Shown: positions 846 through 63,445 of the stretch, in pieces
Layout: each line of letters opens with the position of its first letter
How positions within the stretch are numbered: the first letter of the stretch is position 1
IMG/VR virus record: IMGVR_UViG_3300029288_000111
Location: 1-64,000 of that record
Origin: a virus
Lineage: Duplodnaviria > Caudoviricetes
Reading direction: 5' to 3' (one strand)
DNA length: 64,000 nt
Position numbers and translations under genes: made by a program
Notes under the pieces: model-generated
Seen by the model: the letters and a program-made list of their open reading frames with translations, nothing else
Told to the model about the DNA's origin: nothing
The model's database searches: none

Positions 846-3800
846 TCAGTTCAACGTGGGTGCGTGCCGCGCCAGGAGGTGCTGCGCCCGGTGCTGCGCC
901 ATGACGCGCATCCGAGAGAGGAGCGCCCGCCGCCGCTGCGGGTCGCTCGTGCCGAGGAGTTCCCGCCGCATCCGCACGAAGTCGCGGCCGTGCTCGGAGA
1001 TGTGCAGTGCGTGTTCCTTCTCGGAGAACCCGCGCACGTGCTCGTCGGCCACGGGGTCGCGGAACCCCTTGGCGAGGAACACCGCGCGCACCGCCGGCCG
1101 GGTCACGAACACCGCCCGCACCGGTCGTGCCTCCGGCTCCAGGGAGTCCACCACCTGCTCCCAGACCCTCTCGAAGGCCTTCGAGAGGGTCTCTGCGCCG
1201 CCGGAGTCGTCCGTGGCCGCGTCGCTGTCACGGTGCCCAAGCTGCTTGTAGATCTCCTCGACGCGCGCCGTGAGCTGCGCCAGATCCTCCTCGTGCGCGA
1301 ACGCCTTCGCGTTCTCGGCCTTCAACTTCTCGATGTCGCTCTCGGAGTCACGAACGCGGCGTTCGGCCTTCTCCACGTCGGCGTCTCCCTGCCGCAACTG
1401 GTGCCCGATGGTCGCGAAGACGCTCTGCGAGCTCTCTCCCAGATCCGGCTGCGAAAGTTTCACCACTTCCCGACCGCTCGGGGTATGCACGAACAGCGCC
1501 GGCTCCCGACCGTCCATCCCTACCAGGAGAGAGAAGCCCGCGTAACGGCCGATCTCCCGGGGGCGATCGCCGATCTGGCCCGCATGGGTCATCAACTCCC
1601 GGTTCAGCGCCGCGGCGCCGCCGTCGTAAGTGTCGTAGCCCTGGCCTCCCACCTCGATCGCGAACTTCTCCGGCTTGTGCGCCTTGTAGGTCTGCTGGAT
1701 CTCCCGCACCGTCTCGATATGCTCGCGCTGCTGCCCGATCCGCCGCTGGTGAGAGGCGATCAGACTCTGGCCCTGCCAGCGCGCCTGCTGGTGCTGCGCC
1801 TTCAGCGCGCTCAGACGCGCCAGCTTACTCTCGACATCCACCTTCTCTTTGATGATCGGGTCGCCGGAAGCCCATGCCAGCATCTCGGCGGCCGATTGGG
1901 CGATGCCGCTGATGTCCTCCATCTCGCGCACTTGACTGGTGCCTTGCCGGATCTGCTCGATGAACTTCGCCTTCGCGAGCACCGTCTGCCACATGAACTC
2001 GTCGAACGACCCCTCGGTGACGTAACGGTGGATCTCGACCGGGATCCCCCAGTCCTTGTGCATGTTCCCCTGGCGAACGATCCTCCCCTCGCGCTGCTCC
2101 AGGTCCGCCGGCCGCCAGGGGCAGTCGAGGTGATGGAGGGCGAACAGCCGCTCCTGAACGTTCAGTCCGGACCCCGCCTTCTCCGTGGAGCCGATCAGGA
2201 TCCGCAGTTTGCCGCTGTTCATCAGCTCCGCCAGCCGGTCCTTCTTGGCATCGGTGTTGAAGTCGTGGGCGAAGGCGATCTCATCCTCGCGCACCCCCGC
2301 CGCCACCAGCTTGCGCCGCATGTCCTCATAGACGCTCGTGCGCAGCCCCTGCTCCTCGGCCGTGTCGGTATCCTCGTCGGGCTGGCTGCCATCGTCCGAC
2401 GGTTCCCTGTCCTCGCCCGGCTTTGGCGTCGAAAGGTCGAGGAAGACGATCTGCGTGCCCTGCCGATCCGTCACGCGCGGGTCGTGGTAGATCCGCGCCA
2501 CCTCGCGCACGCACCGGTTCACCTTGCCGTTGGGGTCATCCGTCGCGTCCTTGTCCACGAGACGCACGTCGAGCGATGCCTTGCGCGCATCCGAGGACAG
2601 CTTCAGCATGTTGTCCTCGGACGGGTCCGGGCGACTGCTACCCAGCCCACGAATGGCTTCCGCGCGTTTTCGGATCGACTCCATGTAGGATGAAAGAGAC
2701 TCATTGGACGCCGCCGCGTGCGCCTGATCGCGCCGCTCCGGCAGCGGTAGGTAGGGGAGATCCTTCACCAGCTTCACATCTGCGAACTTGCGATACAACT
2801 TCTGCAGTTCTGGTATGTTGACGAACTTAGCGAAGCGCAGGCGCGGCCGGTAGCCTCCTTCGGGCGACGCTTCCTGGTTGTTCACCACCTCGCCGAAGTT
2901 CGCCGCCCACGAGTCGAACCGGTCCACTCCCTTCTCCCTCAACCCTTGCAGGTCGAGATACCGGTTCATCGTGTACATCTCGGCCATCGTGTTGCTGATC
3001 GGCGTGCCGGTCGCGAAGTAGAGACCCTTCCCCCCGTACTTCTTCAGCATCCACTGCGTCTTCGCGAACAGATCCAGCGCCCGCCCCGACTCCGTTCCCC
3101 CCAGCCCCGCGATCCGGCTCATCTTCGTGGGGAAGTAGAGGTTCTTGAAGAGGTGACAGTTAGAGACCAGAACCCCGGCTGCTAGATAGTTGTGGTGCTT
3201 GTAGACTTCGAGGTTATATGTCCACGGACCCGATCCACCACGAGTTGCACATTCCGCAGCACTTCCTCGTTCGAGAACCTCAACACGGACCACCCGAGAG
3301 CGTTCAAGACCGCCGTCTTTCTGGCATCCAGGAAGCGCCACCGCTTCAGCCGGTGCGTCTTGCCGTCCACCTCGATGGTCGTCTTGCTCTTCGGTTCCGC
3401 GATGTCTACCTTGTAGCAGGGCGGGAGCGACGGAAACTGATCCTTCAGGGCCGAAGTCAAGATGGCATATTCCATCGGCAGATCGAGAGCATCGGCCAGA
3501 AGTCTCTGCGGCTCGGTCAGCGTTCCATTGCCGCCGCGGGCAAGGAAGGTCCTGCCCTGCAAGGACCGCCGCATCTTCTCCCGCGTGACCGGGTTTGCCA
3601 TCGGGTTGCGTGTCTTCATCCTGGCCGACGCTTCCGGGTTCGCCTTGCCCCGACATGCCATCTGGCGCGCCTCGGCAATCCACGAATTGAACGCTTCCGC
3701 ACGACCCGGCCGAGAGTTCCGCCACGATGCCGCACACGGGTTGCTGCAGAAGCGCCGCTTCGCGTTGTTTGTCTCCCCCGATGAGCGGAACGTGAACTCC

Positions 3801-6800
3801 TTCCCGCACCACTCGCACGTCTTGACTACCAGGTGCTGCTGAGTCCACAGAACGCCCTTGCACTTCCGGGAGCAACACTTCTGCGCTGCTCCTTGCTTCC
3901 CCCGAGACGATGGCGTGAAGGGCTGCTGGCATACGACACAGACCGGCAACATGATCCTGATCCCCCCCACGAGAGATAACGACCGAACTACCCGAGCGTT
4001 CCCGGAAAGTTGCGATCTCTTCCAGGTGATGCTGCGATGTCAGGTCGCCAGCGCACACATAGCCCTCTTCTGCCGTCCAGACCTTGTGATTGGGTGTGCA
4101 GAGGAACTCTCCCCCCTCATGGACAACCTTCACCAGCGTACCCCGAAGAGGATTCTTCAGCCAGCGAGCGATGCGCTGCCACTCCAGCCCGCCCGTCTCC
4201 AGGTTCACCGAGGCCACTCGCACATCAAGTGCCTTCTCGACAACTTCACCGATGGGGAGCCATCCTCTCTCCGTCAGTACCGGTGTCTCGTAAGGGAAGC
4301 ACTCGTCCACGATCACGCTGTCCACGCCGAGCTCGTCGAACCTCAAACTGGTATCCTGGCGGTCCTGGATCTTCTGCAGCCGCTTCTTGTGGTTCACCCG
4401 GACGCGCTCCAGCATCTTGAAGAGTTGCTTGGCCGTGCGGTCCTTCTTGTCCGGCTGCGCGTCGGGGTCTACTCCCATATCGCGCATCGTGTCCTTGATC
4501 TGCTCCACCGTCTCCCGGTACTGCGTCTCCGCCATCTCATCCGACATCGGGATCTGCCCGAAGGCGGAGTGGGTGATGACCACCGCATCCCAGTCGCCCG
4601 TAGCGATATGCGACGTCAGTTCCTTCCGCTTCCTCGGCGTCCAGTTGCGCGCCCAGACGGTGAGGATCTTCGCCCCCGGGTAAAATTGCCGGATCTCGGC
4701 ATCGGTCTTCGAGAGGAGGTGGTTCGGCACCACGATCATCGGCTTTTTCTTCAGGCCGAGGCGTCGCAGCTCCATCGCCACCCCGGCGATGATCCGGGTC
4801 TTGCCCGAGCCGACGCAGTGATCGAACAGAACGTTGCCCCCGGCGATGGCCCGCCAGATCCCATCCTTGATGTGCTTTCGCAGGCCCGTGGCGATGTGCG
4901 CGGCCATGCCGGGCAGGGTGAGGTGCGAGCCATCGAACTCCCGGTCGCGACTGTCATTGAACAGGTCATTGTAGAGGCGGACGCAGTGCTCCGCGCGGTC
5001 CTGATCCGCCCAGATCCAGCGCTTGAACTCCTCCTTCATCTTGTCCTGGAGTTCCCGCGCCGCGAAGGTCTCCTGCTGATTGACGACATCCCGCTCTTTG
5101 CCGTGATCGTCTACCTCGTGATCCTTCACTGTCACGAACTGCTGCGCGAGGCAGGCAGCGAGGATCTGGTGCGCCGGCACGCGCTGGGTGCCCCAGGTGC
5201 GCGTGTTCTCCACACCCTGCCGCAGATAGGGGTTGTCAAGCTGGACGTTCCAATCCCCCGTGCCCCTGTTGTAGGAGATGACCGGCTTCTTGTCGCCATA
5301 GCCCGCTCGCAGCAGCCCGGAGAAGAACTCCTGGTAGTACTCCACCGGGATCCAGGTCGCTCCCAAGCGCGCGCTGATCTGTGTCGGGTCCAGATCCTCC
5401 GGCTGCACCGCCTTCAGCGCCTCGACGTTCGGCGCGAACGACCCATCCTCCCGCGCCGCCGCTTCCGCCTGCCGTAGCTTCGCCCGCACCGCGCCGCTGA
5501 GGTACTCGTCGACCGGCACCCACCCCAGGCTCACCGGATCGCTCACCTGCGACGGGTCGCGGTAGACCGCCCCCTCCGCCGCCAACTCGTCGCGGATCCC
5601 TTCCGGGTCGCGCTGCAGCAGCCGACTGATATGCTTCCAGTCGATCTTCCCCCGCTCGTTCAGGCAGATCCCGAGCGCATCCACCGGGCTGGACGCCGAG
5701 GCCGCGCGCGCCGCCGGCGTGATCGTCCGCTTCGCGAAGATGTCCGCCTTCGAGATGGCACCGCCGTCGCGCTCCACCCGCTCCAGGGAGAGGACGAGGC
5801 CGGAGTCCGGGTCGTCGCGGAACGCGCGCACGTTCGCCTTCTCGTGCAGGTTGCCGAACTGGCCCACGAAGGCATCATACCGCTCGTTTAGCGTCGCCCG
5901 GAGCCCCTGGAGTTCGGAATCGGGCACGTCCTCATACTGCGCCGAGATCAACGTCTGCGCCGCCTCCCGCAGCCCGACGAGGCCCGCCAATCGCTTGCTG
6001 TCTCCCCCTGCCTCCTCCAGCCGCCCCGGCACGCTCAGGCTCTCCCGCATGTTGCGGTAGACCTTCCCGTCCTGGATGGTGAAAGCCCCCACCTTCAGCG
6101 CCTCGGGCGCGCGGATCGCTTCCTCCTGCGCCTTCTGCGCCTGCTCATAGTCCGAGCCGTCGCTCATCACGTCTTGCGGCAGCCGAGAGATCGCTTCCTT
6201 CAGCGCCTGCCCCAGGTCGCGCCCGTCACTCTTCATCCCGGTCTCGGTGGCGGCCATCTGCCCGAACCCGGAGCCGACCCCCATCACCCCGAGCATCGAC
6301 TCCGGGTGCGCGGCGAAGTACTCGTTGACCTGGATCTCTTCGCCGCCCTGCACCCTCAGCGGCGCCGTGGCGGTCCATTTCTCGATGAACCGCCCCTCGG
6401 GATCGCGCGGATGGAGCCGCTCGAACTCGGGGTCCTTCTTACGCAGGATCAGCACGTCCGTGGTAACGCGCGTGCCGGCGTTCTGGGCAAACGCATCGTT
6501 CGGGAGACGGATCGCCCCCACGAGATCCGCCTGCTCCGCCAGGTACTCGCGGAACCGCTCGTGCGTCTTGGCGTCCATCGTGTGGTGGGAGCTGATGAAG
6601 CAGACGAGGCCGCCGGGGCGCACCTTGTCGAGGCTCTTGGCGAAGAAGTAGTTGTGGATCTGCCGCGTGAGCCAACCGCGCCCGGTGCGCTGGTACTCCG
6701 CGTCGTGAACGGGGAAGTTGCCGAACGGCACGTTGGAGATCGCCAGGTCGAAGTAGTTCTCGGGGAGCGGCGTCTGCTCGAAGCCCTGGATCTGCACGTT

Positions 6801-8243
6801 CGCGTTCGGGTAGCACTGCTTCAGGATCTCGCCGGTCTGCGGTTCGAGTTCCACCGCCGTCCGGCGCGAGAGGCGCGTCAGATCATCCGGCTCGAACCCG
6901 AGGAAGTATCCCGTGCCCGCCGACGGCTCCAGGACGCGACCGCCCCGGAACCCCAAGTGCCGGACGGCATCCCATAGCGCACCCACGATCTTCGGGCTGG
7001 TGAAGTGCGCGTTGAGGGTGCTCTTCTGCGCCGCCTCATACTCCTCGTCGCTCAGGAGCGGCCGAATCTCCTGGTTCAGCTCCCAGTGCGCCTTGTCGGC
7101 GTCCGTCCAGCCTTCACGCACATAATCGGGGATGTCCTCGTAGGAGCGGACCTCCACGGCGCGCGAGCCTCTGGCATACCGGTCGTAGTGGTAGACCGTC
7201 TGGCCGCGCGCGTAGTCATTGAACTTGGGGTGGAATGCCTGCCCGAACGATCCCCAGCCGCTGAACTTGGAGAGCTCCCGCCGCTCCTCGGGAGTGGCGT
7301 CTCGCTGCTCCTCCTTCAGCGTCTTCAGGATCTCGAGCGCGCGCAGGTTCTGCGCGGCGCGCTGGCGCAGGCTCCCCTCGCCGATGACGTCGGCAGGCGT
7401 GAGCCGCAGGTCCTGCTCGTTGCCGATGTATCCGACCTCCCCGGACAGCCCCCGCCCCTCGAAAGCCGGGCGCGGTGCCTTGCCGGCCGCCGGCTCCCCC
7501 GCGGCCGCCACGGGGTCGCTTACCGCTGGGGATACAGGTACATCGGGTAGGCGATCTCCGCCGCCTCGTCCCTCGTCAACCCCTGGCTCACCAGTTCGTC
7601 CACCCGCTCGTGGGCGCGTTCCGCCGCCGACTTCGCCTTCTGATCCAGGATGCCCTGCGCCTTCCACTCCCGATACGTCTTCGGGCTTCCCTCCCGCCAT
7701 GCGTCCAGGAAGATCCGCTCGTATGGGTCGCGCTGCTTCGCCATGTTCCTTCTCCCCTTCCTTCTTCTTCAGAGAACGCAGCGGCGGCAGGATCGTTCCC
7801 GCCGGCGTGGGCGGCGCCTCCAACAGCGAGGGGCCAGTCGGCACCCCCGCCCGAGCACGCTTCTTCGCCACGGGCGCCTCTTCGGCAGGAGGCTCTCCCA
7901 CCGCGGCCGCCGGGCGCGCGATGAAGACCGGGTGCACCGGCGGCCGGTCACTGGCTTCCGGCATCTCGAACAGGCTCCCCTGGCCTGGGCGCTTCCAGCG
8001 GTATTCATAGCCCGTGCTCATCTCGCGATGGACCGGCACCTTCTCCTTGATCAGCCCGACTCGCGGCGCTCCCGGCACGCTGGGCGGCTTCTTCTCCTTC
8101 TTCGCCGCCGGCACCTCGAACATCCCGAGTTGCCCAGCCGCCTCCCGCTTGCGATAGGCCGCCGCGAGGGTGCCCTTCAGAATGCGCTCTACCAGCAGGC
8201 GCAATCCGAGCGCCTTTCCTATCAGGGAGGGGTTCTCAGCCAT
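846..8243 (-). CDS. DarB-like giant protein: N6-adenine methyltransferase + SNF2/SF2 helicase, intein-containing
   Basis: MTase motifs VLEPSAGTG and NVPFG; Walker A HCVGSGKT; DE-CH split by the intein; ATGTPISN; HHLDCPWRPADLEQREGRIVRQGN. Start placed at ATG 8243 (MAENPS) after a GGAGA RBS rather than 8423. Confidence 0.88.
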   Translation of the reverse strand: MAENPSLIGKALGLRLLVERILKGTLAAAYRKREAAGQLGMFEVPAAKKEKKPPSVPGAPRVGLIKEKVPVHREMSTGYEYRWKRPGQGSLFEMPEASDRPPVHPVFIARPAAAVGEPPAEEAPVAKKRARAGVPTGPSLLEAPPTPAGTILPPLRSLKKKEGEKEHGEAARPIRADLPGRMAGGKPEDVSGVEGAGHPGSEGEVGGGTRPRAGGRTGEPGVDEGRGGGDRLPDVPVSPAVSDPVAAAGEPAAGKAPRPAFEGRGLSGEVGYIGNEQDLRLTPADVIGEGSLRQRAAQNLRALEILKTLKEEQRDATPEERRELSKFSGWGSFGQAFHPKFNDYARGQTVYHYDRYARGSRAVEVRSYEDIPDYVREGWTDADKAHWELNQEIRPLLSDEEYEAAQKSTLNAHFTSPKIVGALWDAVRHLGFRGGRVLEPSAGTGYFLGFEPDDLTRLSRRTAVELEPQTGEILKQCYPNANVQIQGFEQTPLPENYFDLAISNVPFGNFPVHDAEYQRTGRGWLTRQIHNYFFAKSLDKVRPGGLVCFISSHHTMDAKTHERFREYLAEQADLVGAIRLPNDAFAQNAGTRVTTDVLILRKKDPEFERLHPRDPEGRFIEKWTATAPLRVQGGEEIQVNEYFAAHPESMLGVMGVGSGFGQMAATETGMKSDGRDLGQALKEAISRLPQDVMSDGSDYEQAQKAQEEAIRAPEALKVGAFTIQDGKVYRNMRESLSVPGRLEEAGGDSKRLAGLVGLREAAQTLISAQYEDVPDSELQGLRATLNERYDAFVGQFGNLHEKANVRAFRDDPDSGLVLSLERVERDGGAISKADIFAKRTITPAARAASASSPVDALGICLNERGKIDWKHISRLLQRDPEGIRDELAAEGAVYRDPSQVSDPVSLGWVPVDEYLSGAVRAKLRQAEAAAREDGSFAPNVEALKAVQPEDLDPTQISARLGATWIPVEYYQEFFSGLLRAGYGDKKPVISYNRGTGDWNVQLDNPYLRQGVENTRTWGTQRVPAHQILAACLAQQFVTVKDHEVDDHGKERDVVNQQETFAARELQDKMKEEFKRWIWADQDRAEHCVRLYNDLFNDSRDREFDGSHLTLPGMAAHIATGLRKHIKDGIWRAIAGGNVLFDHCVGSGKTRIIAGVAMELRRLGLKKKPMIVVPNHLLSKTDAEIRQFYPGAKILTVWARNWTPRKRKELTSHIATGDWDAVVITHSAFGQIPMSDEMAETQYRETVEQIKDTMRDMGVDPDAQPDKKDRTAKQLFKMLERVRVNHKKRLQKIQDRQDTSLRFDELGVDSVIVDECFPYETPVLTERGWLPIGEVVEKALDVRVASVNLETGGLEWQRIARWLKNPLRGTLVKVVHEGGEFLCTPNHKVWTAEEGYVCAGDLTSQHHLEEIATFRERSGSSVVISRGGDQDHVAGLCRMPAALHAIVSGEARSSAEVLLPEVQGRSVDSAAPGSQDVRVVREGVHVPLIGGDKQREAALLQQPVCGIVAELSAGSCGSVQFVDCRGAPDGMSGQGEPGSVGQDEDTQPDGKPGHAGEDAAVLAGQDLPCPRRQWNADRAAETSGRCSRSADGICHLDFGPEGSVSVAPALLQGRHRGTEEQDDHRGGRQDAPAEAVALPGCQKDGGLERSRVVRVEVLERGSAAECATRGGSGPWTYNLEVYKHHNYLAAGVLVSNCHLFKNLYFPTKMSRIAGLGGTESGRALDLFAKTQWMLKKYGGKGLYFATGTPISNTMAEMYTMNRYLDLQGLREKGVDRFDSWAANFGEVVNNQEASPEGGYRPRLRFAKFVNIPELQKLYRKFADVKLVKDLPYLPLPERRDQAHAAASNESLSSYMESIRKRAEAIRGLGSSRPDPSEDNMLKLSSDARKASLDVRLVDKDATDDPNGKVNRCVREVARIYHDPRVTDRQGTQIVFLDLSTPKPGEDREPSDDGSQPDEDTDTAEEQGLRTSVYEDMRRKLVAAGVREDEIAFAHDFNTDAKKDRLAELMNSGKLRILIGSTEKAGSGLNVQERLFALHHLDCPWRPADLEQREGRIVRQGNMHKDWGIPVEIHRYVTEGSFDEFMWQTVLAKAKFIEQIRQGTSQVREMEDISGIAQSAAEMLAWASGDPIIKEKVDVESKLARLSALKAQHQQARWQGQSLIASHQRRIGQQREHIETVREIQQTYKAHKPEKFAIEVGGQGYDTYDGGAAALNRELMTHAGQIGDRPREIGRYAGFSLLVGMDGREPALFVHTPSGREVVKLSQPDLGESSQSVFATIGHQLRQGDADVEKAERRVRDSESDIEKLKAENAKAFAHEEDLAQLTARVEEIYKQLGHRDSDAATDDSGGAETLSKAFERVWEQVVDSLEPEARPVRAVFVTRPAVRAVFLAKGFRDPVADEHVRGFSEKEHALHISEHGRDFVRMRRELLGTSDPQRRRALLSRMRVMAQHRAQHLLARHAPTLN
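3182..3952 (-). CDS. Homing-type endonuclease (Cys-rich Zn motifs + Vsr/DUF559-like PD-(D/E)xK domain) nested out of frame inside the intein
   Basis: CxxC...CCSxxC repeats, basic linker, YKVDIA...IEVDGKTH...DARKTAVLNALGWSVLRFSNEEV. Same strand as DarB but a different frame; own promoter at 3975-4003. Confidence 0.82.
   Translation of the reverse strand: MLPVCVVCQQPFTPSSRGKQGAAQKCCSRKCKGVLWTQQHLVVKTCEWCGKEFTFRSSGETNNAKRRFCSNPCAASWRNSRPGRAEAFNSWIAEARQMACRGKANPEASARMKTRNPMANPVTREKMRRSLQGRTFLARGGNGTLTEPQRLLADALDLPMEYAILTSALKDQFPSLPPCYKVDIAEPKSKTTIEVDGKTHRLKRWRFLDARKTAVLNALGWSVLRFSNEEVLRNVQLVVDRVRGHITSKSTSTTTI
3975..4003 (-). promoter_or_regulatory. ECF-type promoter inside the intein coding sequence
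   Basis: GGGAAC-gctcgggtagttcggt(16)-CGTTATC, about 22 nt upstream of ATG 3952. Confidence 0.75.
7520..7744 (-). CDS. Small helical protein overprinted in the DarB N-terminal linker
   Basis: 74-aa ORF with natural-looking composition and purine-rich RBS (GGGGAGAAGGAAC-ATG); the DarB frame here is low-complexity Gly/Arg/Pro. Confidence 0.6.
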   Translation of the reverse strand: MAKQRDPYERIFLDAWREGSPKTYREWKAQGILDQKAKSAAERAHERVDELVSQGLTRDEAAEIAYPMYLYPQR

Positions 8244-8310
8244 TGGGTCTCCTGGTACATGCGAAGGGCCACCGCGCCTGCGGTGGCCCAGAGTCTTGAC
8301 TCTCGGAAAG

Positions 8311-8964
8311 CTACTTGTCCGGGGGAGGATCGGCCAAGACTGGGGCCTCCTCCGCATCTTCGCCTCTCCCCTTCCGGAGTAACTCCAAGAGTTCCACTGG
8401 TTCATAGGTTGCCGCGAAGACATCCGGCTTGCAAGGGTAGAACTCCCCCTTCACGCCTCGGATGATCCAGTCACCGGGATAAGCCCACATATTGCCTTCG
8501 CGCGTCTGGATACAGACGCCGATCCCTGCGGCATCCGGCAGGTCGCCGAACAGCGGTGTCGTGCCGATGAAGTCGGAGACCTCGTCCGTGTTGCTCCCGT
8601 TCCACTGGATCGCACTCACCACCACCGGCCGCTTGCGGTAGCGAGCACCGGGCTTCCGGTGCTCGGCGGACTTCTCCCCCGGCGTGTTTTTCTCTTCCGC
8701 GACGGCATAGACGCGCTCGCCGAAGCCCTGCATCTCCCTGCAGACGCGATGCTCCAGTTCTCGCAGCGGGTCCGGGGTCATGTTGTCCGCCGCGGGCTTG
8801 CACACCACGTCCTGACTCCGCTCCGCCACCTTCCAGTCACTCATCGCCCACTCACCCACCCGGAGGTTGAACTCATCCTCGCTAACCTCCTGGCCGTCAA
8901 TCCGGTAGATGGTCCGGGCCGAACACTCCCGGTGGTTGTCGTCCGTCCCTGTCTGTATCGCCAT
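8311..8964 (-). CDS. Conserved phage protein (PGDYG-like); start uncertain (8964 or 8844)
   Basis: YRKRPVVVSAIQW...TREG...PGDWIIRGVKGEFYPCKPDVFAATYE motif. Confidence 0.7.
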   Translation of the reverse strand: MAIQTGTDDNHRECSARTIYRIDGQEVSEDEFNLRVGEWAMSDWKVAERSQDVVCKPAADNMTPDPLRELEHRVCREMQGFGERVYAVAEEKNTPGEKSAEHRKPGARYRKRPVVVSAIQWNGSNTDEVSDFIGTTPLFGDLPDAAGIGVCIQTREGNMWAYPGDWIIRGVKGEFYPCKPDVFAATYEPVELLELLRKGRGEDAEEAPVLADPPPDK

Positions 8965-9193: not shown

Positions 9194-9417
9194 CAGACCA
9201 CATGCTCCAATAACCGCAGCCCGCCCGCCGTCAACGCCAGCCGCGCGCAGCAGTCGGGGCACTCCAGTTCCCGCCCCGCCAGCCGCACCAACTCGGGCAG
9301 CAGCTCGCCCGCGAGACGACCCACGGCGGCCTGGTAGGAGGCCAATCCCGGCTCCGGCTGCAGCAGAAGAGGCCGCAACCGATCCAGGGTTTCAACGAGC
9401 GGTTGATTGTTGTTCAT
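9193..9417 (-). CDS. Hypothetical protein (MNNNQPLVE...)
   Basis: Coupled between neighbouring genes; CxxC motif. Confidence 0.45.
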   Translation of the reverse strand: MNNNQPLVETLDRLRPLLLQPEPGLASYQAAVGRLAGELLPELVRLAGRELECPDCCARLALTAGGLRLLEHVV

Positions 9418-11332
9418 ACGCCTTCCCCAGCCACTCCGGCGGCACGATCCCCCGCCCCAGGCACGCCTTGCGCAGCGGCTCCACCAGCCCCGGCGCCATC
9501 GGCACGCCCACCTCCCCCAGGTCCAACAGGCACGAGAGGAAGTCTTCGGTGAGGGGGATGGACTTGCGAACGCGGCCCCGAGGGGCATCGGAGACCGGCG
9601 AGATGTGGAACTGGTGCAGCACCCCGCCCAGGTTCAGGTTGACGTGATGGGAGCCATCAGCGAGCGCTTGGCAGCGGGCATCAAGCGCAGCCGCGGTCGG
9701 CTCCTGTAGAATGGCACGACTCACCTTCGCCGGGTTCTGCGCCTCCAGGAAGTGGTGAGTGGGATAAGTGGGCCCGGGCGCCCCGAAGTAGTCAGCGTGA
9801 GTCATGGAGCGCAGATGCTTCCCGCCCGCCTTCGCGGCGGCCCGATGGAGGTCATCCAACCGCGACACGTCTACCTCTGCCGACCGCTGGCCGGCATCGT
9901 AACGGTAGCGCCCCCCCGTATCATGGACCCATGCCTTCACCACCCGCTCCCCCCTTAGCGGAATCCCCACCTCCTGCCGGTCCTTCCCCGAGAACGTCAC
10001 CATGCTCCCCGTCACCAGCGTGCCGATCAGCGGGTTCTCTCCCGCGTACTGCTGCCCCCGCCCCGGCTTCACGTAGGCGAGGGTGAGGTGGGGATAGTAC
10101 TCGGGGTACGTATCGGTGTGGGGCAGCGCACCGGCCAGCTTCGCGTTCAGCCGCTCCAGGTCCGGGCCCGTCACGTCCAGCTTCACCACGTCGTAAGCGG
10201 CGCCCGCCTTCGCCGGGAAGAGAGACGTCTGCCCCAGGGTGAACTCCACCGGAGGCTCATCGGCCACCACCTTGCGCACCTCCTCGGGGTCGTTCGTGTG
10301 CAGCCCGAACTGCACCGTCACATGCGGGTCCTTCTCCCGCCCGTCGGCGGCCAGGTCCTCGTCGCGGATCTTCGCTGCCAGCGCGCGCACCTGCGCCGCG
10401 ATCTCCTCGGGGAGGTTGATCTGCGTGGAGCTGAACTCCCGGTCGGGCTGGATGCCCATGAGGACGGCCTTGACGCCCTTGAGGACCCGGGGAAGGTCCA
10501 CCTCCCCGTCCGGCTTCCCGTAGATCCTGCGGATGTGAGCGCGGACCTGCGCCAGGTGCTTCTCGCACGCCGGCACGAAGGCCATCCCCTCGGCCCACAG
10601 AACCGCCTTCACCGCCGGGGAATCGCAGTGCTTGCACTTGTGAGGGCGGTCCAGCGGGGTCCTCTTCAGGATGGCCTTCAGCATCCCCCGCACTGCCGGC
10701 CGCCCCTCTTCCTCCCGCACCCGCGCGTTGTCGCGCCGGTCCGCGATTCGGTCCTTGAACTGCTCCACGCTCATTGCCGTGAACGCCCGCTTCGGGTCCG
10801 CCGGGAGGAACCGCTGATCGTCATAGTGTGCGAGGTAGGCATCGCGCGCGGCCTCCCACGAATCCCACCCCAGCATCACCTTGTCCTCGTCGAACGTGCT
10901 CGTCTTCGGGTCCTGCTGGTGAATGACGTAGACGGTCTGGGCATTCTCGTTCGGGCCGAGGAAGCAGTCGAGGAGGTCCGAGTCAACGGTGAAGCCGCTC
11001 GTGCCGCGGATGCCGCCGTAATCCCAGAGCATCTTTGTGCGCCACGGCTTGCCGTCTTCCACGACGCCGCGGCGCACGCTCCCCTTGCGGTTCTCAATCG
11101 CGACGGTGAGTCCCTGCCACTGGCGCATCCCCTGCAGCTTGTAGCCCACCGCCTTCAGCACCGCCCGCACCGGCAACCCCCGCGTGGGCGTTGCCGCGAA
11201 CTCCCGCAGCTTCTCTTCCGGCATCTCCTCGGCCAGCCGCTTCACTTCGGGAGAGGCGTCCTTCAGCTCCCCGCGCTTGTAGGCGATGGCCATCCCGAAC
11301 AGATGCTGTTGCCTCTGCGACTCTGCCGGCAT
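9392..11332 (-). CDS. Polyvalent protein: DUF3008-like N-terminus + inorganic pyrophosphatase-like domain + 2H phosphoesterase (Acb1-like)
   Basis: MPAESQRQQHLFGMA; IENRKGSVR...DYGGIRGT..VDSDLLDCFLG...FDEDKVMLG; two HxT motifs (DPHVTV, PHLTLAY). Confidence 0.78.
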   Translation of the reverse strand: MPAESQRQQHLFGMAIAYKRGELKDASPEVKRLAEEMPEEKLREFAATPTRGLPVRAVLKAVGYKLQGMRQWQGLTVAIENRKGSVRRGVVEDGKPWRTKMLWDYGGIRGTSGFTVDSDLLDCFLGPNENAQTVYVIHQQDPKTSTFDEDKVMLGWDSWEAARDAYLAHYDDQRFLPADPKRAFTAMSVEQFKDRIADRRDNARVREEEGRPAVRGMLKAILKRTPLDRPHKCKHCDSPAVKAVLWAEGMAFVPACEKHLAQVRAHIRRIYGKPDGEVDLPRVLKGVKAVLMGIQPDREFSSTQINLPEEIAAQVRALAAKIRDEDLAADGREKDPHVTVQFGLHTNDPEEVRKVVADEPPVEFTLGQTSLFPAKAGAAYDVVKLDVTGPDLERLNAKLAGALPHTDTYPEYYPHLTLAYVKPGRGQQYAGENPLIGTLVTGSMVTFSGKDRQEVGIPLRGERVVKAWVHDTGGRYRYDAGQRSAEVDVSRLDDLHRAAAKAGGKHLRSMTHADYFGAPGPTYPTHHFLEAQNPAKVSRAILQEPTAAALDARCQALADGSHHVNLNLGGVLHQFHISPVSDAPRGRVRKSIPLTEDFLSCLLDLGEVGVPMAPGLVEPLRKACLGRGIVPPEWLGKAYEQQSTAR

Positions 11333-12576: not shown

Positions 12577-13807
12577 GGAGATTGCGGCGGGAAGCCCCTG
12601 CCTTCAGGCAGGGGAGGAAAGCCGCGTCCGCTTCCAAAGCGGACAGATTCCCACCGCATCCTCCCTTCCTTGACATTCCCTTGTGCTGACACTCGCGGTG
12701 AAGCTGGCTCCCGATATGGAGCAAGCGAAAGCTCTCCTGGAAACCCTGGAGGCGTTCAACGCTGCCTGCAACTACCTGGGAGAGATAGCCTTTCGCCTGA
12801 AGACCGCGAGCAAATACAAGCTTCAGCACGAAGCGTATCAGGACGTGCGCGAACGCTTCCACTTGTCGGCGCAGATGGCGATCCGCGCTATCTCCAAAAC
12901 CTGCGAAGCCTACAAGCGCGACCGCAGCATCCAGCCGCACTTCCGCCCCCACGGCGCCATGTGCTACGACGAACGGATCATGGCCTGGAAAGCTGCCGAC
13001 CGCGTGTCGCTGCTGACGCTCTCGGGGCGCGTCGTGGTGCCCTGCCGCTACGGTGCTTATCAGGCCGCCCGTATCGAGCGCCGCCAGGGGCAGGCCGATC
13101 TGGTCTACCGCGACGGCGTGTTCTACCTGTTCGTGACCGTGGATGTGCCCGAAGCGGAACCCTTCGACCCAGAGGGCTTCCTCGGGGTAGACCTTGGGAT
13201 CGTCAACATCGCCACGGACAGCGACGGCGCTCAGCACTCCGGGGCGGTGGTGAATGGCCTGCGCCACCGGCACCGCCGCCTGCGCCAGAAACTGCAGAAG
13301 AAGGGTACGAAGTCGGCCCGCCGCCTGCTTCGCCACCGGCGCCGCAAGGAAGCCCGCTTTGCCCGCCACGTCAACCACTGCCTCAGCAAGGAGATCGTCG
13401 CCAACGCCAAAGACACAAAGCGGGCGCTCGCCCTGGAAGACCTCCAGGGCATCCGCGCCCGCTGCACGGTTCGCAAGGCTCAGCGGGCAACGTTCTCCTC
13501 GTGGTCGTTCTTCCAACTGCGCTCCTTCATCACCTATAAGGCGCAGCGCGAGGGCGTGCCCGTGGTTCTCGTGGACCCTCGCAACACCTCGCGCGAATGC
13601 CCCACCTGCGGGCACACTGATAAGCGCAACCGGCCTTCGCAGTCCGTCTTCTGCTGCACATCCTGCGGGTTCGCTGGCCCGGCGGATGTCATCGCGGCGG
13701 GCAACATCGCTCGCCGGGCCGCCGTAAACCGGCCATACGTCTCGGAGACAGCACTCGCTGCCTAGCCAGGGACAAAGCCCCCAGGCTTTAGCCGGGGGAT
13801 TGTTTAC
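12577..13807 (+). mobile_element. IS200/IS605-family TnpB-only element (IS1341-like)
   Basis: Inserted 3' of TCAC (12573-12576); left-end hairpin CCCCTGCCTTCAGGCAGGGG; right-end hairpin CCCCCAGGCTTTAGCCGGGGG, element ending TTAC; no tnpA; no target duplication. Confidence 0.85.
12683..13765 (+). CDS. tnpB: RNA-guided endonuclease TnpB
   Basis: RuvC-I GVDLG, RuvC-II LEDL, Zn finger CPTC/CTSC, RuvC-III ADVIAAGNI all intact. Confidence 0.95.
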   Translation: MLTLAVKLAPDMEQAKALLETLEAFNAACNYLGEIAFRLKTASKYKLQHEAYQDVRERFHLSAQMAIRAISKTCEAYKRDRSIQPHFRPHGAMCYDERIMAWKAADRVSLLTLSGRVVVPCRYGAYQAARIERRQGQADLVYRDGVFYLFVTVDVPEAEPFDPEGFLGVDLGIVNIATDSDGAQHSGAVVNGLRHRHRRLRQKLQKKGTKSARRLLRHRRRKEARFARHVNHCLSKEIVANAKDTKRALALEDLQGIRARCTVRKAQRATFSSWSFFQLRSFITYKAQREGVPVVLVDPRNTSRECPTCGHTDKRNRPSQSVFCCTSCGFAGPADVIAAGNIARRAAVNRPYVSETALAA

Positions 13808-60036: not shown

Positions 60037-60519
60037 TTACTGCCTCGTGAAGACCACGTCAAAGCGATCCAGGGGAGAGGTTGACTCGCCACGCACGAGC
60101 GATCCCTGCAAACTCGATCCGCTGACAGACCCTTGGAGCCGCCAAACGTCGGCGATGAGATCCACCCGTGAGCCGCGCAGATAGCCGGTCTGGATCTGAT
60201 AGCGGTCACGCCATGGCACCACCACCAGCGTTCCCTTCACCTGGTTCGCAGACTGGACAAGAACGAGTTCGAACATCCGCTGGCCATTGCGCCAGCACAC
60301 CCAGCTCCCCGTCACATCCACCGCCCCGGCCGGCGGTGTACTCGCCGCTGCCGGCGGCTCCACCGCGGGAGGAGCATCGGGTGCGGGTTGCACCGGCGTT
60401 ACCGGCGCCACCCGCTGCCCCGGCGTTACCGGCATCACCGGCTGCGTCCGCACCCTCTCGCAACCGGCCAGCAGCACGAGCAGACATATCCCGACCCAGA
60501 GCAAACGAGTGTTCACCAT
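60037..60519 (-). CDS. Lipoprotein
   Basis: Signal peptide with lipobox LLAGC; Pro-rich linker. Confidence 0.7.
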   Translation of the reverse strand: MVNTRLLWVGICLLVLLAGCERVRTQPVMPVTPGQRVAPVTPVQPAPDAPPAVEPPAAASTPPAGAVDVTGSWVCWRNGQRMFELVLVQSANQVKGTLVVVPWRDRYQIQTGYLRGSRVDLIADVWRLQGSVSGSSLQGSLVRGESTSPLDRFDVVFTRQ

Positions 60520-60544
60520 CCGCGTAACCCCTTCCGCTATAGGA

Positions 60545-60751
60545 CTACGCGGAGGCCTGAGATGTTCCCGCTCGGGCCTCCCGGCGTGCGGCAGCGATCT
60601 CCCGCTCGATCTCCTCGGGCGAGAGCCCGGAACGCCGTGCGTTCGCCCAGGCGCGTTCGACGATCTCCTGGAGGCCCTCCCACGCCTGTTCACGCTCCCG
60701 TGGGAGAGAGTTTGATATCACAATCTGTGATTTCAAAACATCCTCTTTCAT
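60545..60751 (-). CDS. Small helical protein resembling antitoxin C-termini
   Basis: GLSPEEIEREIAAARRE; AGGGG RBS. Confidence 0.5.
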   Translation of the reverse strand: MKEDVLKSQIVISNSLPREREQAWEGLQEIVERAWANARRSGLSPEEIEREIAAARREARAGTSQASA

Positions 60752-62181
60752 GTTCGCCCCTCGCGTTCACCGGCTCCCGACGAACACTGTACTCATACCC
60801 GTCCACCCGCTGCACGACGCGGATCTCCTTCTGGCTCCTCGGGCTGTAACTGCGCTTCGTGCCATCGGGATAGGAGACGATCCCCTTGCCCGCCCGTCGC
60901 CTCCAACCTGGAAACCCGCCCACACCGGCCCCGGAACAGCACCATATCGCCGGTGCCGAAGTGGAAGCGCCGCTTCCACCGCCTGGCCGTCATCGGCAGG
61001 CCGTCCTTCCCCAGACGGGGAAAACCGGGAGCGCGATACCGCCGCAGTCCGCGGTCTCCATGCCCCTTGGCAGTCGCGAAGAGAACCCACACCTCCCGCG
61101 CCCCTCGCTTGACCGACAGGAGCGGCGCCTCGCTCCAGGCATACGCCGAGCGACCGACACAAAGAGCATCCAGCGAATGTGTCTTCGCCAAGCGGAACTG
61201 ATCCCGAACGAAGTGCGTCATCCCGCCCGAGCCGGTTTCCAGGGGCAAGCCCATGCGCCGGATCCGGGCACAGAGATCGGTCCGCGCCGAGTTTACCGCC
61301 GCCGCGTCTTTATACGACTTACCCACCTGCGCTTGCACATCGGGGTGCCCAAACTCTACCGCCGTCCGGTTCTTCTTGGCCTGGTTGCACGGTCCGCAGG
61401 CGATGGTGAGATTGCTCACCCGATTGGTTCCGTCCCTGCCTTTCGGAATGATGTGCTCCACCTGAAGCGGCCCCGGAAACTTCTTGTTGCAGTAGGAGCA
61501 GCGGTGGTGGAACTTGTAGAGAAGATACTGCTTCAACTCGTAGCCGGCGAGGGTGCCGCGTTGATACTCCATCCCCTTGATGTCCGGCTTCTCCATCTTC
61601 TGGGTGTCGAAGCGCACCGCCTCGACCGATATTCCCGTCACCGGCGCCCACCGGCACAACCGCTCAATCCACGAAACCTGCGAAAGGACCCGCGCCTTCA
61701 CCGCCGGAGACAGCCAGCGCCCGCGCGTGTCCTCGCCGTTGTGCCGCACGCCCTTGTGGCGCCAGCACCAGTCCTTGCCACTTCTGGCGTTCTGCCCGCA
61801 GATGTGGCACTTCACGCGCGGGCGGTTCCTGAAGCGCCGGGGGCGGTAGCGGCGATACTTGTTGCGGCGCATCCGGCGCCAGTTCCGACGCTGCTGCATC
61901 TTCTTGTGAATGCCCCGGCGGTGCTCAATCTCCATCAGCGCCAGGGCGCGCGGTCGGTTCCCGCCTTCTCGGACGACGGCCAGTCCAGTTGCCTTCGATC
62001 CCGGATCCAGCTTCACCCGCACCGACTGCAACTCGCTCTCTTCCACCGTTCGGTCCGCCAACCGGATCACGAAGGGGGAGCGGCGGTGAACACGCGCCCG
62101 GCCCCTCTCCAGGAGGAGTCGCGCCCGCTTCTCCGTGCAGGGCATCAGCGGATTCTGATGTTTGTCCAGAACGTAGACCAT
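60690..62181 (-). CDS. iscB: IscB RNA-guided endonuclease, frameshifted by a 4-bp duplication at 60888-60895 (as read, ORF 60793-62181)
   Basis: PLMP domain, RuvC-I LDPGS, Arg-rich bridge helix, RuvC-II VEAVRFD, HNH (CSYC..EHIIP..NL..C..CN), RuvC-III THSLDA; typical VQRVDGYEY tail in the shifted frame. Confidence 0.93.
60711..60737. repeat. Palindrome TTTGATATCACA-ATC-TGTGATTTCAAA
   Basis: 12-bp arms with 1 mismatch; same core as 63037-63061. Confidence 0.8.
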
Positions 62182-62184
62182 CTT

Positions 62185-62539
62185 CTTGTCCTTACGGACC
62201 TTGTGACGGTGGCGGTTGGCATCCCGCCACGCTCACCACGCCCATGTCAACCGGCAGTCCGGCATTGAGCCATGTCGCGTTCCGTTTCGTGGCCTCTCAA
62301 CCATTGTCTACAAGTACCTTTCGGTACGAACGCGACTTCGAGAGGGTCAGGCTGGTGAAGCACCGACCGTCGGTTTTAGACATCCGGCCAACGTAGCTCA
62401 CGGCCCGAAGGCCGCTTCAGCGGTTGTTACTCCCGCCTCCTCATCTGCCTTGCCATCGGCATCGGTGGCTCGGGCTAGTTCGCAGTTGACAGACTTTTCA
62501 GCCCGCGCGCTTCAACTCGGAATCCGCATCGCGCAAGGA
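62185..62539 (-). ncRNA. omegaRNA/HEARO-like scaffold with 5' anti-repeat (tracrRNA-like)
   Basis: ACTAGCCCGAG, GCTACGTT, TGCTTCACCAGCC, GACATGGGCGTGGTGA and CGTCACAAGGTCCGTAAGGAC motifs upstream of iscB; 62508-62526 complementary to the repeat. Confidence 0.82.
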
Positions 62540-62912
62540 GTCGCAACGGACTCCGAATAGAAGCGGAGAGTGCGACGTTCTGGCGGGATGCACGCCCCGA
62601 AGATCCTCCGTCGCAACGGACTCCGAATAGAAGCGGAGAGTGCGACGTTTCACGCCGCCGCTCCGATCCTGACCGGGCGAGTCGCAACGGACTCCGAATA
62701 GAAGCGGAGAGTGCGACCCTCGTTTCATGCCGATACCGGCAGGTGCCGGCTGTCGCAACGGACTCCGAATAGAAGCGGAGAGTGCGACTCGGCGCTGTGA
62801 TCGTGCCGCCCCTCCTGCCGGCGTCGCAACGGACTCCGAATAGAATCGGAGAGTGCGACTCCCAACCGTTCTGGCGTCGCAACGGACTCCGAATCGGAAC
62901 GAAGAGTGCGAC
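62540..62912 (-). CRISPR. CRISPR array, 6 x 37-bp repeats GTCGCACTCTCCGCTTCTATTCGGAGTCCGTTGCGAC (minus strand)
   Basis: Repeats start at 62540, 62610, 62681, 62752 (identical), 62823 (1 change) and 62876 (degenerate); spacers 33, 34, 34, 34 and 16 nt. Confidence 0.96.
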
Positions 62913-62944
62913 TGACACTCACCGCCGTTATCCCCTTCCACCCT

Positions 62945-62974
62945 AGATAACGCTCGATGGCCGCGAGCGTTCCC
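62945..62974 (-). promoter_or_regulatory. ECF-type promoter reading into array, scaffold and iscB
   Basis: GGGAAC-gctcgcggccatcgag(16)-CGTTATC. Confidence 0.8.
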
Positions 62975-62992
62975 ACTTTTTTTCAAGGCGTT

Positions 62993-63061
62993 TTGAGATG
63001 CCGATTTGGCACCTCAAAGGTGACAATCTGTTACCTTTGAGGTCACAATCTGTGACCTCAA
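62993..63061. repeat. Three overlapping palindromes with 3-nt centres
   Basis: 62993-63017, 63011-63043 and the perfect TTGAGGTCACA-ATC-TGTGACCTCAA at 63037-63061. Confidence 0.85.
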
Positions 63062-63232
63062 GATTCAGCGTGGCCTGCCGCCGTCGTTCCCACCCGCCGC
63101 GACCCGGCGGGCCGGCCGTCAACGTGGGCTTCCCCGGTCGTTTGAGTGACTCGCACACGAATACGTCGCGTGCTGATCCCACGCGGCATACGCTCGGCGC
63201 GGGGGCGGGCTCCCACCGCCAGGCGGCCACGC

Positions 63233-63445
63233 TCAGACCTCCCGCACCCGCCGCAGCGTCCTCCCCGGCACCACGACGAACGATCCGTCACCGAACTCCA
63301 CCAGCACGTTCCGAGGCCCGGGCCCGCCGCTCCAGACCACCGCACGGCACTCCTGGCCGTAACGGCCGTTCCCCAGCGGGAAACTCGGATCCCAGGACGA
63401 GCGCCCGGCGCGGGCCACGTAACGGTAACGGCGATCAGGTTCCAT
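63233..63445 (-). CDS. Hypothetical protein
   Basis: NVLVEFGDG..VVVP..LRRV; coupled to the upstream gene. Confidence 0.6.
   Translation of the reverse strand: MEPDRRYRYVARAGRSSWDPSFPLGNGRYGQECRAVVWSGGPGPRNVLVEFGDGSFVVVPGRTLRRVREV

Follow-up and report, generated by a model that had tools for sequence, protein, structure and literature searches.

CRISPR-linked IscB nucleases are viewed as snapshots of the route from a transposon nuclease to Cas9, and they offer a basis for building genome editors of very small size. The layout of the DelIscB type is set out in two published accounts (PMC12660989 and PMC10734217, both citing Altae-Tran 2021): an array lies upstream of the omega RNA and iscB on the same strand, the guide is joined to the scaffold by a repeat:anti-repeat hairpin, there is no cas1 or cas2, and the nuclease is a small protein of 457 aa. 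IscBs are ancestrally transposon-borne (PMC10734217), as is OgeuIscB (PDB 7XHT, 7UTN), in which a structured RNA directly upstream ends at the gene start and a single guide is drawn from the transposon flank. Type II CRISPR-Cas9 systems, with their crRNA:tracrRNA pairs, likewise rely on repeat:anti-repeat pairing, which ties the spacers to the scaffold bound by an HNH and RuvC nuclease.

The window that we analysed, 64,000 nucleotides in length (positions 1 to 64,000 of the IMG/VR virus record IMGVR_UViG_3300029288_000111, which itself extends over 101 kb), contains a 2.3-kb locus that shares each of the DelIscB traits listed above, its IscB measuring about 496 aa when read through the frameshift described below. 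Its parts are as follows:

62540-62912, minus strand: CRISPR array of 6 repeats of 37 nt and 5 spacers
62912-62876, 62859-62823, 62788-62752, 62717-62681, 62646-62610 and 62576-62540, minus strand: the six direct repeats
62508-62534, minus strand: anti-repeat of 27 nt, 5 nt past the last repeat, placed by the minimum-energy fold
62182-62507, minus strand: omega-RNA scaffold, HEARO-like but divergent, that stops at the ribosome-binding site of iscB
60793-62181, minus strand: iscB frame as it stands, 462 aa, with PLMP/RRXRR, split RuvC, zinc-finger insert and HNH
60880-60905, minus strand: zone of a 1-nt frameshift, including a G4 run at 60882-60885
60690-60884, minus strand: +1-frame continuation with the IscB C-terminal motif VVQRVDGYEY, from alignment and hhalign

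With moderate confidence, we interpret this as a CRISPR-IscB cassette of the DelIscB kind on a temperate phage, likely of Armatimonadota hosts, of which the present copy was probably inactivated recently. The design itself is already known; what is new is the lineage, the carrier and the apparent decay.

The six 37-bp repeats claimed in an earlier note on this DNA were recovered on the minus strand, and no second array of this kind is present in the 101-kb record. The four repeats nearest the scaffold are identical and show the best anti-repeat pairing among the six, and the two scaffold-distal ones are degenerate, lying 4 and 1 positions off the consensus. The spacers measure 16, 34, 34, 34 and 33 nt, the first being merely 16 nt long. 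In the minimum-energy fold the anti-repeat is complementary to nt 12-37 of the repeat, and the resulting duplex has an energy of -40.6 kcal/mol, as against -24.3 ± 4.0 kcal/mol for 1000 shuffled repeats, which bears out the claimed fusion of an anti-repeat to the omega RNA of a CRISPR-linked IscB. The array and the omega RNA are thus adjacent on the same strand with the anti-repeat at the scaffold 5' edge, two of the features that characterise the DelIscB type.

The gap of 358 nt between the array and iscB, in which omegaRNA/HEARO motifs had been noticed over about 350 nt, indeed contains a HEARO-type omega RNA immediately ahead of the gene. A search with the HEARO model RF02033 returned a weak, but full-length and correctly placed, match at 62226-62490 (E 0.03), whose 25 bits fall far below the curated Rfam cut-off of 83 bits. 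Strong covariation with four relatives backs the structure, with 85% of cells paired versus 62% in shuffles and changes on both sides in 34 of the 45 scaffold pairs. Sequence blocks of the scaffold are common to one of the related loci, L080, and no closer omega-RNA relatives were found in IMG/VR.

The IscB protein is matched by the Pfam models RRXRR (PF14239, E 5.8e-56) and HNH (PF01844, E 6.5e-11), and its residues D59, E187, H243, H335 and D338 fall on the catalytic positions of OgeuIscB in an alignment, in agreement with the RuvC D/E/H/D and HNH residues claimed previously. Homology of the 462-aa ORF is lost beyond about residue 433; the conserved C-terminal end resumes in the +1 frame, the +1-frame segment matching the C-end of the family profile with an hhalign E of 2.3e-4. 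As the QR.DG[YW].Y end is found in the +1 frame only, there is no uninterrupted frame through the target-adjacent-motif-binding domain. The gene is a member of the family that is broken as sequenced. The +1 frame remains open for 77 codons with the motif retained, so that the break is either recent or not real. The same frameshift occurs in a second assembly record (L163, ENA contig k141_...), which is 100% identical over 12,450 nt. The name of this contig is of the MEGAHIT form, which points to short reads, in which G4 indel errors are rare. The frameshift could nonetheless stem from misassembly or belong to a minority variant, and the two records may share the same reads. This copy of the cassette has probably been inactivated recently and appears to be decaying: the 1-nt frameshift takes away the conserved terminal part of the target-adjacent-motif-binding domain, and decay is suggested by the degenerate scaffold-distal repeats along with the truncation of the first spacer.

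Several features set the locus apart from the described systems. Relative to DelIscB, the IscB belongs to a different lineage with a zinc-finger insert, the scaffold has diverged too far to pass the Rfam HEARO cut-off, the gene is frameshifted, and the carrier is a high-G+C phage with probable Armatimonadota hosts. OgeuIscB has the same domain order and catalytic residues and a similarly placed RNA; however, about 26% of positions align well (bit score 95), its single transposon-flank guide is replaced here by the array and anti-repeat, and TnpA is absent. Unlike type II Cas9, the studied IscB has no REC lobe, the cassette is devoid of cas1, cas2 and csn2, and, going by the sequence, the anti-repeat lies in cis beside the last repeat and is not a separately promoted tracrRNA.

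The 101-kb record encodes a terminase, a weakly matched portal, a tail fibre, an amidase, an integrase and a lysin, so that the claimed phage carriage holds. CheckV puts its completeness at 72%; a terminal repeat as proof of completeness was considered and rejected, just an 82-nt internal repeat being present. The absence of cas1, cas2 and tnpA noted for the window extends to the whole record, itself about 72% complete, in which no cas1, cas2 or Y1 tnpA (PF01797) was found. A complete TnpB is encoded at 12683-13765 and a TnpB fragment lies some 3 kb upstream of the cassette. Relatives of the terminase, at 54-70% identity, are found in Chthonomonadales and Fimbriimonadaceae MAGs, one of them within a 6.1-Mb contig. 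Given these relatives, the carrier is likely a temperate tailed phage with hosts among the Armatimonadota (Chthonomonadales). The small ORFs near the cassette had no PADLOC or Pfam match, and a search for related phages with the 944-aa neighbour gene, for an empty-site comparison, found none.

In the proposed mechanism, a single minus-strand transcript would run from the array into the scaffold. The anti-repeat would pair with a repeat, the adjacent last repeat giving a natural single-guide hairpin, and repeats farther upstream could take its place or act in trans. The duplex may be trimmed by host RNase III, as in Cas9, and scaffold-bound IscB would then cut DNA matching about 16-20 nt of the repeat-proximal spacer beside a target-adjacent motif.

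We fetched a comparison set of 164 related loci, in 11 of which (L022, L041, L050, L070, L074, L086, L101, L155, L156, L160 and L200) an array stands directly upstream of iscB, at a distance of 60-400 nt, with HEARO matches of 61-129 bits that abut or overlap the last repeat. Five of the 11 are IMG/VR contigs (L022, L041, L050, L070 and L074), and these resemble the present locus in being viral, in having the array a few hundred nt upstream and in having the HEARO RNA abut it; they differ in protein sequence (35-41% identity), in their repeats and in that their genes are not frameshifted. The rarity ascribed to such loci is accordingly not sustained, the DelIscB type being published (PMC12660989) and phage-borne examples being common in IMG/VR. 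In a FastTree phylogeny the studied IscB clusters with no rows but L080 and L199, away from the remaining array-linked ones, and the group of 78 rows around it contains no other array-linked IscB. The sequences of L080 and L199, its closest relatives, end about 460-480 nt upstream of iscB. Well-supported branches require the array label to have been gained or lost at least 7 times. Common descent with the known array-linked IscB clades is hence not supported by this tree, which was built without the DelIscB sequence.

The earlier note had proposed a domesticated multi-guide system directed at competing elements or the host. That the cassette is such a fully functional multi-guide IscB, with the frameshift an assembly artefact or bypassed, is possible but doubtful. 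All the catalytic residues, the identity and strong pairing of the four scaffold-proximal repeats and the open, conserved +1 frame are in keeping with function, as is a spacer G+C content close to the values of the phage and of its likely host. The identical frameshift in two assembly records and the decaying distal array speak against it, and multi-guide processing lacks proof even in DelIscB (PMC12660989). The spacers also yielded no credible target. They returned nothing from the phage collection, two partial matches at chance level (E 0.1 and 0.3) and nothing else from the plasmid collection, only chance-level matches in 68 Chthonomonadales genomes, and nothing in the carrier phage (with as many as 6 mismatches tolerated across the full spacer, or as many as 3 within its 3' 16 nt). 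Three of four spacers (3, 4 and 5) had no match in IMG/VR. Spacer 2 has an exact match over its 3' 21 nt in a complete phage, L162 (L162:3173-3193), which would favor a functional array; but by our own estimate about 0.1-0.4 such 21-nt matches are expected by chance, the 5' 13 nt are unmatched, and the phage has 71% G+C and no terminase in common with the carrier. We therefore rejected L162 as the target of spacer 2, the match being near chance and the phage unrelated.

The locus had been described as lacking recognisable IS-end hairpins. We observed that matching palindromes bracket it:

63037-63061, minus strand: upstream palindrome H1, with an 11-bp stem, loop GAT and core TCACAGATTGTGA
63014-63036 and 62990-63016, minus strand: degenerate H1-like hairpins H2 and H3
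60712-60736, minus strand: downstream palindrome, with the same core and loop orientation as H1

The upstream region 62975-63110 has a DNA fold z-score of -5.2, and the downstream palindrome lies within both the 3' end of iscB, when read through, and the first part of a 68-aa ORF (60545-60751). Within the 101 kb the core TCACAGATTGTGA occurs only at these two flanks of the cassette, and ORF6N genes of Chthonomonadales have an almost identical coding core (L[KR]SQIVTS); no ORF6N domain was found in the phage. One speculative and rather unlikely scenario is that the lineage formed by the studied IscB with L080 and L199 gained its array and anti-repeat independently of the other CRISPR-linked IscBs, that the whole cassette moves through recombination at an ORF6N-type palindrome common to phage and host genomes, and that one transcript can choose among several repeats for intramolecular pairing. 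Such a choice would make the cassette a multi-guide system without a separate tracrRNA.

The palindromes, as 25-nt elements with the same loop orientation that enclose precisely the stretch from array to iscB and have no further copy in the 101 kb, could also be read as the ends or recombination sites of a mainly selfish OMEGA or IS200-IS605-type element, or a remnant of one, whose guides serve homing and neither defence nor attack. The full TnpB and TnpB fragment on the same phage and the transposon-borne ancestry of IscB (PMC10734217) would agree with this, but the record has no Y1 transposase, the palindrome is absent from the 163 other IscB loci and instead matches the ORF6N coding core of the order to which the host likely belongs, neither the flanks nor the rest of the phage are matched by a spacer, and the array occupies the position of a flank-derived guide; we consider such an element improbable.

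The repeat is internally palindromic with the 3' terminus GTTGCGAC, and this ending, which we take to resemble Cas6-type repeat ends such as those of Thermus, serves as a lead only. It is very improbable that the array is a class 1-type mini-array, stray or hijacked, that depends on host Cas proteins and is unrelated to the ordinary IscB element beside it, as this palindromic ending might hint, given the specific 27-nt anti-repeat 5 nt past the last repeat at the scaffold 5' edge, the recurrence of the same arrangement in independent IscB loci, and the absence of the repeat or its end motifs from any array in the genomes searched. The repeat had no match in IMG/VR and was found in no array of GTDB species genomes (strict pattern), of 401 Armatimonadota genomes (up to 3 mismatches) or of 68 Chthonomonadales genomes (BLAST and end-motif pattern). 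The earlier note had named a host class 1 array with the same repeat together with RNA that does not co-purify with IscB, or homologous loci without array-iscB linkage, as the observations that would tell against its proposal; no such array turned up in these genomes, and the linkage recurs in the related loci.

Read as a probably inactivated cassette of the DelIscB kind, the locus leaves the known picture unchanged and does not inform target biology. It adds a further IscB lineage with the array and anti-repeat wiring, and a carrier in the form of a high-G+C phage of a phylum that has been little studied. Its apparent decay argues for turnover of phage cassettes and not for stable domestication.

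A promoter had been placed at 62945-62974, reading into the array. We rejected this reading, as no sigma-70-like site was found on the minus strand of this segment, and a hairpin occupies it instead:

62949-62971: 8-bp GC-rich hairpin with a T-run on the plus strand, terminator-like on that strand

The cassette lies on the minus strand of a phage record and comprises the elements listed here.

62540-62912, minus strand: six direct repeats of 37 nt each
62508-62534: anti-repeat, 5 nt past the last repeat
60793-62181, minus strand: iscB ORF, 462 aa (Pfam RRXRR 5.8e-56, HNH 6.5e-11)
60690-60923, minus strand: +1-frame ORF with the IscB C-terminal motif (hhalign E 2.3e-4)
60545-60751, minus strand: 68-aa ORF directly after iscB
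63037-63061, minus strand: palindrome H1, 25 nt, with an 11-bp stem, loop GAT and core TCACAGATTGTGA
62990-63036: two degenerate palindrome copies next to H1
60712-60736: fourth palindrome copy, with the loop oriented as in H1

The array described in the earlier note is thus present. Its repeat consensus starts with GTCGCACTCT and ends with CCGTTGCGAC, the spacers measure 16, 34, 34, 34 and 33 nt, and no second array of this kind was found in the 101-kb record. The four gene-proximal repeats are identical, and the two most distant ones show 1 and 4 differences. The anti-repeat, which had been proposed to be fused to the omega RNA, is complementary to nucleotides 12-37 of the repeat, and in the minimum-energy fold of the region from spacer 5 to iscB it forms one long hairpin with the last repeat. 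The energy of this duplex (-40.6 kcal/mol) lies beyond that of 1000 shuffled repeats (-24.3 +/- 4.0), while the degenerate repeats pair more weakly with the anti-repeat (-36.4 and -33.9 kcal/mol). In a cassette of this design, guides would be supplied from the array via repeat:anti-repeat pairing.

The 326 nt between the anti-repeat and the iscB start, where a HEARO-type RNA had been claimed, gave a full-length but weak match to RF02033 (25 bits, E 0.03; cut-off 83 bits). This region has long conserved blocks in common with that upstream of iscB in the closest relative, L080. A five-sequence alignment of the scaffold with relatives yielded a consensus structure of 45 pairs, in which 85% of the cells were paired as against 62% in shuffles, and only 33–45% when the partners were slid by 1–3 columns. 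Both-side changes were seen in 34 pairs versus 18 in shuffles, the observed value being reached in 0 of 500 shuffles. As pairing and both-side changes exceed the shuffles, the scaffold is a genuine structured RNA, albeit of a divergent HEARO subtype.

Linkage of array and iscB was found to recur among 164 other related IscB loci collected from IMG/VR, JGI metagenomes and Logan/NCBI. A same-strand CRISPR-like array lies 60–400 nt upstream of iscB in 11 of them (L022, L155, L156, L041, L050, L070, L074, L086, L101, L160 and L200; L155 and L156 carry the same IscB as L022), five being IMG/VR viral contigs. The HEARO matches at these loci (61–129 bits) adjoin or overlap the last repeat, and in several the repeat is complementary to downstream sequence, well above shuffles. 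In a FastTree phylogeny of 165 IscBs the rows with an array are dispersed, and the array label must change at least 7 times to fit the branches with good support. Several independent CRISPR-IscB associations were reportedly noted by Altae-Tran in 2021. The window IscB forms a well-supported trio (SH-like support 99) with its closest relatives L080 and L199 only, apart from the other array-linked rows, and it belongs to a separate IscB lineage. The contigs of L080 and L199 share a homologous starting point, about 460–480 nt upstream of their iscB. Their starting segments (L080:1-30 and L199:1-30, Logan contigs) end with GTTGCAAC, and a common start of this sort would be expected where an assembler meets a CRISPR repeat. 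These array-linked loci agree with publications in which some IscBs are described as CRISPR-associated and as bearing a repeat:anti-repeat hairpin (PMC12660989, PMC10734217). Judged from its sequence, the window locus belongs to this known class; it shares the hairpin with DelIscB, and in both several spacers may be used. The alternative that the repeat derives from a host class 1 array found no counterpart, as no array with this repeat was detected in GTDB species genomes (strict two-repeat pattern), 401 Armatimonadota genomes (up to 3 mismatches) or 68 Chthonomonadales genomes (end-motif pattern).

The iscB product matches the solved structures of TbaIscB (6e-58) and OgeuIscB (4.5e-26), and its D59, E187, H243, H335 and D338 fall on catalytic residues of the latter when the two are aligned, bearing out the claimed RuvC and HNH residues. 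Similarity to the relatives ends at about residue 433 of the 462-aa product, and the C-terminal QR.DG[YW].Y motif, which hardly varies across the family, lies here in the +1 frame as VVQRVDGYEY. The frame breaks between about 60905 and 60880, a zone that contains a G4 run (60882-60885), and read-through would give an IscB of about 496 aa. The ENA contig k141_3129167 (100,630 nt) shows 100% identity across the 12,450 nt that were compared, and its iscB is likewise called as this 462-aa gene; both records may come from the same reads. The k141_ form of its name is presumably the MEGAHIT convention, suggesting short-read data, in which we take such errors to be rare. The frameshift is probably real and also recent, given that the +1 frame has stayed open and conserved. 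Together with a shortened first spacer and the degeneration of the distal repeats, it suggests that this copy of the cassette recently lost function. Pfam and PADLOC assigned the 68-aa ORF to no family.

No credible target emerged for the spacers, which the earlier note had supposed to be directed at competing elements or the host. They had no match in the phage's own genome, no significant match in phage and plasmid collections and chance-level matches only in the 68 Chthonomonadales genomes, and the 3' 20-mers of spacers 3, 4 and 5 had no exact match in IMG/VR. The 3' (repeat-proximal) 21 nt of spacer 2 match exactly at L162:3173-3193, a site within the 96-aa ORF of a membrane protein in an unrelated, complete phage of 53.8 kb and 71% G+C (IMGVR_UViG_3300018933_000006). 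The remaining 13 nt do not match, the two phages have no terminase in common, and the estimated chance expectation for such a match is 0.1–0.4 over four spacer searches; this near-chance match is probably fortuitous, and a weak lead only.

The earlier observation was sound as a whole, except in the promoter and the lack of IS-end hairpins. The supposed promoter (62945-62974) contains an 8-bp GC-rich hairpin (62949-62971) with its T run on the plus strand, and the minus strand showed no sigma-70-like site anywhere from 60400 to 63400, though host promoters may differ. The palindromes at 63037-63061 and 60712-60736 had been overlooked. They bracket the cassette, the second lying both in iscB, at the 3' end of its read-through frame, and in the start of the 68-aa ORF, and their core is found nowhere else in the 101 kb. 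The palindrome is missing from 163 other IscB loci and so does not represent a transposon end common to IscBs. It occurs in 5 of the 68 Chthonomonadales genomes (7 matches versus 2 for a control pattern), and in most of these it codes for the L[KR]SQIVTS core that is conserved in genes with an ORF6N domain (PF10543). The copy in L188 equals H1 at 28 of 30 nt, and in this and three further Chthonomonadales loci (L184, L185, L187) the palindromes are paired at a spacing of about 250 nt and accompanied by ORF6N fragments; no ORF6N domain was found in the phage. The bracketing palindromes are the one unexplained feature of the locus: they may be recombination scars at the cassette insertion, protein-binding sites or something else, and may mark a recombination hot spot.

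The record itself (101,092 nt, classed linear, CheckV completeness 72%) lacks a Y1 transposase, cas1 and cas2 throughout, extending the absence of cas1, cas2 and tnpA claimed earlier. Further genes of the phage include the following.

12683-13765, plus strand: full-length TnpB, 360 aa, with OrfB_IS605 and Cas12f1-like TNB domains (PADLOC Cas12f profile 8e-56)
65905-66204 of the genome, outside the window (3681-3980 of L163, a second assembly record): TnpB fragment, 99 aa, with a Cas12f1-like TNB domain
846-8423, minus strand: DarB-like protein, 2525 aa, with methyltransferase and helicase regions (phrog_10089, E 0)
9392-11332, minus strand: 646-aa protein with an InPase domain (PF18823) and a 2'-5' RNA ligase/LigT phosphoesterase domain

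The full-length TnpB, with no TnpA or array nearby, gives the phage a second OMEGA nuclease; the fragment, beside a weak sigma-70-like gene, is some 3 kb upstream of the IscB cassette, and the region around the cassette seems to collect OMEGA elements. The DarB-like protein is probably an injected anti-restriction protein. The phage also encodes DNA methyltransferases, an amidase, a tyrosine integrase, a weak portal match and a tail-fibre-like protein, and is temperate. An 82-nt exact direct repeat occurs at 1-82 and 100491-100572 of the genome; it was rejected as a terminal repeat, the second copy being internal, 600 nt short of the contig end. The large terminase (phrog_2, 2e-30) is about 30% identical to those of known phages. 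Its relatives at 54–70% identity are mostly in Chthonomonadales, Chthonomonadaceae and Fimbriimonadaceae MAGs, for which reason the host is likely to belong to the Armatimonadota, and one of these relatives sits within a 6.1-Mb contig.
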